This document shows, piece after piece, positions 3,001 to 6,000 of a DNA stretch of 64,000 nt. The position numbers are program-made. Source of the DNA: Escherichia coli (GTDB taxonomy: Bacteria > Pseudomonadota > Gammaproteobacteria > Enterobacterales > Enterobacteriaceae); NCBI RefSeq assembly GCF_045037415.1, contig NZ_CP173438.1. One strand, given 5' to 3'. Numbering within the stretch: position 1 is the first letter of the stretch; the number at the start of each line of letters is the position of its first letter.

Positions 3001-6000
3001 CCCTCTCGACAATTGAGAAACGTAACCCAACCCTGAAAGGCGCGCTGCCAGACAACTACTTCAGCCGTCAGAATCTGGAAACCAAAAAACTGGCGTCACT
3101 GATTGATACCATCGACAACATCGAAACGCTGGCACACGAAACTGACGTTGAAACGTTGTCGAAAGAAGACCTGGTCGGACGCGTTTACGAATACTTCCTC
3201 GGTAAGTTTGCCGCAACCGAAGGCAAAGGCGGTGGAGAGTTCTACACGCCCAAATGTGTGGTCACGCTGTTAACTGAAATGCTCGAACCCTTCCAGGGCA
3301 AAATTTATGACCCGTGCTGCGGCTCGGCAGGGATGTTCGTGCAGTCGGTGAAGTTCGTCGAGAGCCATCAGGGTAAAAGCCGTGATATCGCGCTGTATGG
3401 TCAGGAACTGACAGCCACGACGTATAAACTGGCAAAAATGAACCTCGCCATTCGCGGTCTTTCAGCTAACCTCGGCGAACGCCCGGCAAACACTTTCTTT
3501 AGCGACCAGCACCCGGACCTGAAAGCCGACTACATTCTGGCGAACCCGCCGTTCAACCTGAAAGACTGGCGCAATGAAGCCGAATTAACCGAAGATCCAC
3601 GCTTTGCCGGTTATCGTATGCCGCCAACCGGTAACGCCAACTACGGCTGGATTTTGCATATGCTCTCCAAGCTGTCGGCTAACGGCACAGCAGGTTTTGT
3701 GCTGGCAAACGGTTCGATGAGTTCTAACACCAGCGGTGAAGGCGAGATCCGTGCACAGATGATCGAAAATGATCTGATTGACTGCATGATCGCCCTACCT
3801 GGACAGTTGTTCTACACCACGCAGATCCCGGTGTGTTTATGGTTTATGACCAAATCGAAGGCTGCCGACCCGGCCAAAGGTTATCGTGATCGTCAGGGCG
3901 AGACGCTGTTTATTGATGCGCGTAACCTCGGCACCATGATTAGCCGCACAACTAAAGAGTTAACGGCGGAAGATATTGCCACAATCGCCGATACCTACCA
4001 TGCCTGGCGCAGCACGCCGGAAGAACTGGCTGCACGGATTGCGCGTGGTGACAGCAAGCTGGAAAAATATGAAGACCAGGCAGGCTTCTGCAAAGTTGCG
4101 ACCCTGCAAGATATTAAAGATAACGACTACGTTCTGACACCGGGCCGCTATGTGGGTGCAGCCGAGCAGGAAGAAGACGGCGTGGCATTTGAGACCAAAA
4201 TGCGTGAATTGTCGAAGACGTTGTTTGAGCAGATGAAGCAGGCGGAAGAACTGGATCGTGCGATTCGCCAGAATCTGGAGGCGCTGGGTTATGGGGAGTA
4301 AGTGGTGTATATATCGCTTAGGTGATATAGCTGAATTTTCATACGGAAAAATGCCTAAAAAGGAGTTTGTTGGTACAGGTGACTATGTCATTTTTTCAGG
4401 ATATAAATACACAGAAAGCTACCCTGAAAAAAATACTTCGGCAGGTGAGTTAATTGTTGTTGCCCGAGGTGTTGGTGGAACTGGCGATGTTAAAATAACG
4501 ACTAGAGATTGTTATTTAACAAATTTGTCCATTAAAATAAATTTGGATGAAACAAAAGTAAGAAAAGAATATTTTTATTATCTGTTTCTACAGAGTAATT
4601 TACGATATCTTGATAGCGGTTCTGCTCAAAGCCAAATAACCATCAATGATCTAGCGAATGTAGAAATATCTGCTCCTTCGCTAAATGTTCAAGATTTAAT
4701 AGTCAAGAGTCTCAAAGCTTTTGATGACAAAATCACAACACTTTCATCCATGAACCAAACCTTGGAACAAATGTCCCAAACCCTGTTCAAATCCTGGTTT
4801 GTGGATTTTGATCCAGTGATTGATAACGCTCTGGATGCAGGAAATCCAATCCCGGAAGCCCTGCAAACTCGCGCCAAATTGCGTCAAAAAGTACGTAATA
4901 GTGCAGATTTTAAACCGCTTCCGGCGGAAATTCGCTCGCTTTTCCCAAGTGAATTTGAAGAAACGGAGTTGGGTTGGGTGCCAAAGGGGTGGAAAGAAGG
5001 GACGCTTCCAGAGATAGCTTTTATAAACTCCACATCGTGGACTAATAAAAATCAACCAGATTATATCAATTATGTAGATCTCTCTAATGCGAAAGATGGC
5101 AGAATATACTCAATTGAAAAATTATCATTTAATGATGCTCCAAGTCGAGCTCGAAGAATATTAAAAAAAGATGATCTGATTTTTGGCCTTGTCAGACCTG
5201 CTAACAGATCATTTGCATATGTACATGTTGATGGTCTAACGGGTAGCACAGGCTTTGCCGTTATTAGAGCCCAAAAGACGATATATAAAAATTTCATTTA
5301 TTACTTTGTGACCTATGATAAAAATATAGAAGAACTAGCGAGAATTGCTGATGGTGGAGCATATCCTGCTATAAAACCTGATGATATTTGTACATTACCT
5401 CTAATTATTCCATCAATAAATATAATTGAGAAATTTGATGAATTAACAAGCAATTTCAGAGAGATGATGAATAACTCATTAATTCAAAACGAATATCTCA
5501 CCAACCTCCGAGGCACCTTGCTCCCGAAACTCATCTCCGGCGAGCTATCCCTGGAAGATCTTCCGGATCTCACCACCGATACAGAAGCCGCATAACGCAT
5601 TTTGCCCCTGTAAAATCAGGGGCTTTCTGGTAAGGTTTTCTACTGATACGGGAATGCTTACCAGAAATTAGCCAGGGTTGGAGCGCGATATGAGTCTCTC
5701 TTTCAGTGAAGCAAAATTAGAACAAGCGATCATTGAACTGTTACAGGATCAGGGATATCAACACCTGATCGGCGATAATGTCCCACGTTCGAGCCTCGAT
5801 CAGGTCATTATCGAAGACGATCTCCGTCATTATTTAGCGGCACGCTACCAGCCTGATGGCATTACTGAAGAAGAGATTCAGCGACTGATCAAACAGTTCA
5901 CCACGCTTCCGGCCTCCGATCTTTATGAAAGCAACAAAACATTTTGTCGCTGGCTGGCAAATGGTTTTCTGTTCAAACGCGACGATCGGCAACAAAAAGA

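Follow-up and report, generated by a model that had tools for sequence, protein, structure and literature searches.

The hsdS gene of an ST131-like Escherichia coli chromosome is the S.EcoMII allele, with RTAC(N4)GTG as its very probable target

Identity of the hsdS gene

Which bipartite DNA target is specified by an hsdS gene with two strongly AT-rich blocks, and is that target already known? The question is raised by the gene at positions 4291..5595 (plus strand) of a 64,000-nucleotide stretch of the Escherichia coli contig NZ_CP173438.1 (RefSeq assembly GCF_045037415.1), the whole of which is referred to below as the window. An earlier interpretation, made without database searches and called here the sequence-only reading, had placed this gene between hsdM and hsdR, had taken its AT-rich blocks for horizontally exchanged target-recognition domains (TRDs), and had considered that the specificity could not be inferred from K-12 and might be uncharacterised. 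The position and nature of the gene were confirmed, since open reading frames (ORFs), start codon and RefSeq annotation agree. The supposition that it may be uncharacterised had to be abandoned, as the gene is 100% identical to EC958_0077 (S.EcoMII) of the sequence type 131 (ST131) strain EC958, that is, to the hsdS gene of a system already studied.

Positions 1-21917 of the window are 100.000% identical to EC958, whose hsd locus lies at 5.05 Mb, and hsdS itself matches EC958_RS25260 in 1305/1305 nt. Over the full window, identity to that strain is 100% in the segments 1-49084 and 51356-64000, the sole difference being a 2,271-nt insertion. In line with this, the knockout primers for EC958_0078-0077 given in Table S4 of Forde 2015 map to 2678-2696 and 5581-5599, flanking hsdM-hsdS, and a quantitative PCR primer for EC958_0078 maps to 2869-2888.

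In the study of EC958 (Forde 2015, PMC4659465), EC958_0076-0079 were described as hsdM-hsdS-hsdR beside Mrr, the system was named EcoMII and assigned to type ID, and its HsdR was found to be 92% identical in amino acids (aa) to the R subunit of StySBLI. As determined by SMRT (single-molecule, real-time) sequencing, EC958 has two type I systems and two type I motifs, AAC(N4)CTTT and RTAC(N4)GTG, each of which is lost in one knockout (PMC4659465); both motifs are methylated at >99% as N6-methyladenine (m6A) (PMC4659465). The hsdS gene of the window is the S.EcoMII allele, and the system, having been studied by knockout and SMRT sequencing, is already known. Operon and flanks are the same as in EC958 at every base, in the same immigration control region and with no sequence difference, and the gene itself adds little, being a common allele that is also carried by ST131, Nissle 1917 and ATCC 25922.

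Assignment of the recognition motif

The publication that introduced EcoMII gives one pairing of the two motifs with the two systems in its text and the reverse one in Table S5. According to the results, the discussion and the legends of Figure 1 and Figure S1, EcoMII recognises AAC(N4)CTTT and the second type I system, EcoMIII, recognises RTAC(N4)GTG (Forde 2015, PMC4659465). In Table S5 of the same paper (PMC4659465), RTACNNNNGTG/CACNNNNGTAY is entered as 'NA' in the RM.EcoMII knockout, and AACNNNNCTTT/AAAGNNNNGTT is entered as 'NA' in the RM.EcoMIII knockout. Other labelling slips were found in PMC4659465: the footnote numbers of Table S1 are shifted, and the legend of Figure S1 names EcoMII twice. 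In what follows, methylation motifs and knockouts are taken from the papers, while gene identity, domain limits, mosaic structure, composition and the lack of an EcoMIII S gene in ATCC 25922 were determined here.

We conclude that the target of EcoMII is very probably 5'-RTAC(N4)GTG-3' / 5'-CAC(N4)GTAY-3' and not AAC(N4)CTTT, which would most likely be that of EcoMIII; the error then probably sits in the main text of Forde 2015 rather than in Table S5. The first line of evidence comes from ATCC 25922 (NZ_CP009072.1), in which HsdM, HsdS and HsdR bear the same WP accessions as in EC958 and the DNA is identical to that of the window over 1-17957, all 6 mismatches in 32.8 kb lying past 17958. The nanopore methylome of this strain comprises GATC, CCWGG, RTACnnnnGTG and GAGACC/GGTCTC, with AACnnnnCTTT absent; according to the methylome authors, REBASE is in agreement for four of these motifs (GATC, CCWGG, RTACnnnnGTG, GGTCTC) in the same strain. 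RTAC(N4)GTG is favoured because a strain with the identical operon and without the EcoMIII S gene methylates this motif and not AACnnnnCTTT.

The EcoMIII operon, hsdR-hsdM-hsdS, lies on the thrW island of EC958 at 318665-324631 and encodes an HsdS with accession WP_000671528.1; its S gene was found in 519 complete E. coli genomes. In order to follow it in ATCC 25922, we joined a 3.2-kb anchor, with which ATCC 25922 comes out on top, to the TRDs of the EcoMIII S gene and of the EcoMII hsdS gene, and counted the megablast places of this composite query; B2 strains hold two places for the anchor by itself, and an anchor-only query served as the control. The composite query yielded 3 places each in ATCC 25922 and Nissle 1917 and the anchor alone 2, with EcoMII hsdS accounting for the third. 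Both S genes were detected in EC958 by local BLAST with the composite query, and database-wide the number of places rose from 5285 with the anchor to 6264 with the composite, about 425 + 519 carriers. By these place counts, the EcoMIII S TRDs have no megablast match in ATCC 25922 or Nissle 1917.

A second argument is provided by the TRDs. The C-terminal TRD of EcoMIII has as its best PDB match the AAC-reading N-terminal TRD of EcoKI (E = 1e-24, 30% identity), and the motif written as AAAG(N4)GTT presents AAC on the strand read by a C-terminal TRD. That a TRD placed at a different position in another family can read a similar half-site has been documented for StySKI and EcoR124I (review). With EcoMII HsdS, a PDB search at E <= 0.01 gave no match to the EcoKI S subunit. 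RTAC(N4)GTG is thus also favoured because the relative of the AAC-type TRD sits in the S subunit of EcoMIII and not in that of EcoMII.

Thirdly, RTAC(N4)GTG fits the methylation interval of type ID, an argument of consistency that is not decisive. In RT(m6A)C N4 GTG the methylated A is at position 3 and the T opposite the second one at position 10, giving 6 bp between the methylated adenines; an interval of 6 bp, found in StySBLI, EcoR9I and KpnAI, is the family-specific value of type ID (review). EcoMII therefore shows the type ID interval, provided that RTAC(N4)GTG is the correct assignment.

Several observations weigh against this conclusion, the first two of them also in favour of the opposite pairing, in which the main text of Forde 2015 is right, the EcoMII allele recognises AAC(N4)CTTT / AAAG(N4)GTT and the columns of Table S5 are swapped. 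Results, discussion and the legends of Figures 1 and S1 repeatedly agree on AAC(N4)CTTT for EcoMII, and the slip could be that of Table S5 (PMC4659465). For AAC(N4)CTTT, the choice of the methylated A in AAAG would set the interval at 6, 7 or 8 bp, and the type ID value is also obtained with the A adjoining G. That ATCC 25922 lacks the EcoMIII S gene is read from megablast place counts, which a diverged S gene of the same specificity would escape, and the 30% identity between TRDs hints at a common half-site and is no proof of it. This pairing is nevertheless unlikely in our judgement: it would leave unexplained why ATCC 25922, in which operon and flanks are identical and the EcoMIII S TRDs find no megablast match, shows RTACnnnnGTG without AACnnnnCTTT, it contradicts Table S5, it would attribute an AAC half-site to the S subunit that lacks the EcoKI-like AAC TRD, and the main text on which it relies belongs to a paper with further labelling slips in Table S1 and Figure S1. 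The window itself contains 4 RTAC(N4)GTG and 13 AAC(N4)CTTT sites, too few to assign the target by motif avoidance.

Literature searches for the two motif strings led to no papers other than that on EC958 and the one on Snappy, along with the preprint of the latter. No methylome of Nissle 1917 was found in the literature searched. For curation, the motif printed for EcoMII in the 2015 main text has probably been swapped with that of EcoMIII; plasmids or phages built on that text so as to evade restriction by ST131, Nissle 1917 or ATCC 25922 would then be stripped of the wrong sites.

EcoMIII resembles EcoMII in that both, in the same strain, have a two-TRD HsdS with AT-rich TRDs, and differs from it in family and locus. 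We observed that the EcoMIII HsdS (415 aa) consists of two TRDs and a central conserved region, as opposed to the single TRD described in Forde 2015 (PMC4659465), and that the thrW island also holds an AbiEi/AbiEii toxin-antitoxin pair. At ~2.96-3.01 Mb of NZ_CP009072.1 (ATCC 25922), cobUST and the pks island are found where thrW/proA would be expected from the K-12/EC958 order, as might result from a large inversion or from a difference in assembly.

Recognition domains, their composition and their exchange

An alignment of six alleles of this hsdS family was used to set the domain limits within the 434-aa protein. The N-terminal TRD (aa 5-157, 4303..4761, plus strand as for the other domains; GC 0.34, and 0.24 at third codon positions, GC3) coincides with a Pfam PF01420 (Methylase_S) match at aa 3-160 (E = 9.7e-21). 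It is followed by a central conserved region (aa 158-234, 4762..4992, GC 0.47), which comprises the helical spacer and the HsdM-contact region and is near-invariant in the six alleles. The C-terminal TRD (aa 235-405, 4993..5505, GC 0.33, GC3 0.23) matches the N-terminal TRD of T. tengcongensis HsdS (PDB 3OKG/5YBB) with a domain E-value of 6e-15, and a second, weak PF01420 match covers aa 231-377. The distal conserved region (aa 406-434 plus the stop codon, 5506..5595, GC 0.59) carries the motif LRxTLLPKLISGELSLEDLPDL...TEAA, which is kept in 6/6 aligned alleles. HsdS thus has the order TRD1, conserved helix, TRD2, conserved helix that is characteristic of type I. The sequence-only reading had put the AT-rich blocks at codons 10-150 and 250-390, which was close, although the alignment extends both of them, to aa 5-157 and 235-405.

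With regard to base composition, the contrast that had been noticed by eye proved to be real. Codons 10-150 have a GC content of 33.1% (GC3 0.21) and codons 250-390 of 31.9% (GC3 0.18), against 46.1% (GC3 0.43) for codons 151-249, 49.2% (GC3 0.59) for codons 391-434, 51.5% (GC3 0.60) for hsdM and 45.7% (GC3 0.49) for hsdR; the full window has 49.1%. The GC3 of the TRD codons (75/324) differed from that of the conserved hsdS codons (51/106; Fisher p = 2e-6), of hsdM (322/539; p = 3e-26) and of hsdR (536/1087; p = 2e-17), and across the 64 kb a GC content <36% was reached in just 3.9% of 423-nt windows. When hsdM, hsdR and the neighbouring mrr-like gene supplied the codon usage for recoding the TRD protein, a GC content of 44.6% was expected versus 33.2% observed, so that ~60% of the drop in GC from hsdM is synonymous and the remainder is due to amino-acid composition.

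The interpretation of the blocks as exchanged TRDs was borne out by the alleles found in complete E. coli genomes. This hsdS allele is present in 425/5,426 of them (~8%), counted as a place spanning >=80% of the gene, with 427 records matching at >=99% identity. In ~440 further genomes, megablast matched only nt 460-705 and 1216-1305 of hsdS, at 93-96% identity, the TRDs being unrelated; likewise, in the six-allele alignment, the two conserved blocks (aa 158-234 and 406-434) are near-invariant around unrelated TRDs. In strain TST3 (NZ_CP154406.1), the N-terminal TRD and the central region are the same and the C-terminal TRD has been swapped for a different one, with breakpoints at 4985/4986 and 5490/5491 of the window. 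Modular TRD exchange between alleles is therefore directly visible. As an observation in its own right, this natural recombinant (4392-10639 of the examined TST3 locus) has a type ID hsdM, N-terminal TRD and hsdR at 98% identity, and its operon lies outside the immigration control region, in another chromosomal island beside inovirus-type Gp2 and lutBC genes.

What could not be upheld is the use of AT-richness as a flag of an unusual or recently imported TRD. The TRDs of all six sampled alleles have GC contents of 0.29-0.37 and GC3 values of 0.21-0.29, against a GC of 0.46-0.47 in the central and 0.56-0.60 in the distal region, and the hsdS genes of EcoKI and EcoMIII likewise have AT-rich TRDs. 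Since all sampled TRDs are AT-rich, AT-richness alone says nothing on the novelty of an allele; it is the normal state within a pool of TRDs that the type I systems of enterobacteria share and recombine. In future scans, too, AT-rich TRDs are to be expected as a rule in enterobacterial hsdS genes and are by themselves no guide to novelty. The origin of the C-terminal TRD can be viewed in the same light: an 82%-identical C-terminal TRD was found in the type ID locus of another enterobacterium (mcrBC-hsdM-hsdS-hsdR-symE; metagenome contig), where it aligns together with the flanking hsdR as one 80%-identical block, so that the TRD is about as diverged as its neighbours. Having diverged like the flanking hsd genes, it is an old resident of the gene pool and not a recent import. 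In that enterobacterium, hsdS (contig 5459-6825) is split by a stop just 5' of the central region into ORFs of 168 aa and 274 aa, and its N-terminal TRD is different.

These data also bear on the idea that the TRDs of the allele in the window are newly imported and that its bipartite target is still to be established. That the specificity cannot be inferred from K-12, as the sequence-only reading had stated, was confirmed: by BLASTP the best match between the HsdS proteins of EcoMII and EcoKI reached 18% identity (E = 5e-4), a similarity at the level of the fold that is of no use for specificity and does not place EcoMII in type IA. TRD-by-TRD protein searches returned short proteins and fragments only, among which no stated specificity was found for matches of either TRD outside E. 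coli, and the nearest non-identical relatives reach 55-64% identity for the N-terminal and the above 82% for the C-terminal TRD. Despite these points in its favour, the idea is highly improbable and is refuted by the identity with EC958_0077, a gene that has been deleted and SMRT-assayed; since EC958 has two type I systems and as many type I motifs, the target is either of two sequences already known, and the allele is shared by the 425 complete genomes counted above, including that of ATCC 25922, whose methylome is published.

It is most improbable that the blocks are compositional noise or a regulatory (e.g., H-NS-bound) feature of a vertically inherited gene: similar-sized AT-rich patches do occur elsewhere in the window, and several promoter-like hexamer pairs lie on both strands of the blocks, as in any AT-rich DNA, but their count is 9 versus 12.6 in shuffled sequence, the GC3 contrast is highly significant, the blocks coincide with Methylase_S domains, and they match exactly the segments replaced between alleles, so that the allele mosaic refutes this explanation.

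As for the N-terminal TRD, the relatives that come closest to it beyond E. coli and Salmonella among the short proteins returned, at the 55-64% aa identity mentioned above, are single-TRD proteins of ~158 aa, those named being from Roseburia and Streptococcus suis. One of these relatives (P0053) was found in three loci, on contigs of 37-41% GC, with a tyrosine recombinase and a fragment of hsdS in inverted orientation next to it, and one of these loci (L020) has a full hsdM-hsdS operon upstream. Phase-variable type I 'shufflons' are laid out in this way, and as a lead only the context is compatible with an ancient low-GC source of the N-terminal TRD. It is conceivable, albeit doubtful, that this TRD belongs to a recognition-domain family that passes from phylum to phylum in the gut. 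In that case, import from low-GC Firmicutes would have left the E. coli N-terminal TRD with its low GC3 (0.2), and the half-site of this domain could be taken from characterised phase-variable alleles.

The EcoMII locus and the remaining window

The genes are ordered as brnTA, mrr-like, hsdM, hsdS, hsdR and symE/symR, with hsdM, hsdS and hsdR adjoining on one strand, as is typical of type I. The locus lies between yjiA/brnTA and symE/yjiS and therefore occupies the immigration control region, the site at which K-12 carries EcoKI hsdRMS, from yjiA to symE; type ID systems occupy 12% of immigration control loci (2025 review). Judged from its genes, EcoMII is an intact type ID restriction-modification system of this chromosomal region, its assignment to type ID resting on the 92% HsdR identity of the published paper.

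Directly 5' of hsdM, a gene for an Mrr-like restriction endonuclease of 388 aa (1452..2618, plus strand; ORF, RefSeq 'restriction endonuclease' WP_000800831.1) corresponds to EC958_0079 'Mrr', which adjoins EcoMII (Forde 2015, PMC4659465). An NCBIfam search with the Mrr-like protein gave no match. The hsdM gene (2682..4301, plus strand; EC958_0078, M.EcoMII) encodes a 539-aa N6-adenine methyltransferase subunit, annotated in RefSeq as 'type I restriction-modification system subunit M' (WP_001029745.1), which matches TIGR00497 with E = 1e-50 and 172.8 bits, under the curated cut-off of 242.75. Its translation has the motifs DPCCGSAG (S-adenosylmethionine) and NPPF and thereby the features of a gamma-class N6-adenine methyltransferase. 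The 434-aa product of hsdS (EC958_0077, WP_000535012.1) is encoded by the ORF at 4291..5595 on the same strand, with RefSeq coordinates that are equal in EC958: its ATG at 4291 creates an 11-nt overlap with hsdM, whose stop codon is at 4299-4301, and its own stop codon is at 5593-5595. The hsdR gene (5690..8953, plus strand; EC958_0076; RefSeq start 5690) encodes the translocase/endonuclease subunit of 1087 aa, which matches TIGR00348 with 470.7 bits, above the cut-off of 284.55. The HsdR translation contains a Walker A motif (GTGCGKS) and a DEAH box, as expected of a nuclease/translocase, and EcoR124I HsdR is a distant match. In the predicted proteins, the catalytic motifs are thus intact in both HsdM (NPPF, DPCCGSAG) and HsdR (Walker A, DEAH box).

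A consensus scan located, between the hsdS stop and the hsdR start, a GC-rich hairpin followed by TTTCTGG (5604..5623, plus strand). The hairpin has 7 pairs, 6 of them G-C, and the evidence is weak, as the scan yielded no more sites than in shuffled sequence. It may represent a candidate partial terminator or attenuator, in which case hsdR would have its own transcription start and separate control.

By the established type I scheme, one HsdS of EcoMII would bind two HsdM (M2S), with each AT-rich TRD presumably reading one half of the bipartite target. The conserved helical regions would pair as an antiparallel coiled coil, fixing the spacing and holding the TRDs in inverted orientation, and M2S would methylate one adenine per half-site, one on each strand. 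Addition of two HsdR is predicted to give an ATP-driven translocating endonuclease that cuts unmethylated DNA.

Among known systems, the type ID prototypes StySBLI (CGA N6 TACC), EcoR9I (AGCA N6 TGA) and KpnAI (GGCA N6 TTC) are located, like EcoMII, in the immigration control region. They have an N6 spacer, in contrast to the N4 of EcoMII, in which more bases are specified towards the centre; their TRDs differ from those of EcoMII, hence the other targets, and the likeness is known from the published HsdR identity and from the interval. EcoKI (type IA, AAC N6 GTGC) shares the K-12 locus and the subunit logic, and its hsdS also has AT-rich TRDs (0.30-0.36) and GC-richer conserved parts. It differs in its gene order hsdR-hsdM-hsdS, on the opposite strand relative to the flanks, in the conserved regions and TRDs of its HsdS, both unrelated to those of EcoMII, and in its methylation interval of 8 bp versus 6 for EcoMII. 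The type IIB enzyme BaeI (AC N4 GTAYC) has a two-TRD S subunit, and its core AC-N4-GTAY overlaps CAC(N4)GTAY (Table 4 of the review), a likeness that is a lead only; it belongs to another enzyme class and cuts on both sides at fixed distances.

The restriction operon is flanked by two toxin-antitoxin modules, BrnT/BrnA on one side and SymE/SymR on the other. The brnT/brnA pair (679-1282, minus strand; EC958 annotation) lies between yjiA and the Mrr-like gene. The SymR antisense RNA (9097-9173, minus strand) was identified by Rfam RF01809 with 83.1 bits, and the symE toxin gene (9168-9506, plus strand) is annotated as such in RefSeq, symE/symR forming the downstream edge of the immigration control region.

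Elsewhere in the window, fimB is split at ~39,800-42,300 (EC958 5,014,614-5,017,106) by the ISL3-like ISEc53, which carries a ClbS/DfsB-family gene in the EC958 annotation. This is the fimB insertion known from ST131, and it has AT-rich patches beside it (38211-40024 and 42171-43894). The 2,271-nt insertion relative to EC958, at 49085-51355, is a group II intron inside the transposase gene of the IS3-family element ISEc52. It contains reverse-transcriptase/maturase ORFs in two frames (49741-50385 and 50357-51265), and its 3' end coincides exactly with that of a match to Rfam Intron_gpII (51269-51355, 64.9 bits). By virtue of this insertion, the strain of the window is ST131-like but not EC958 itself.

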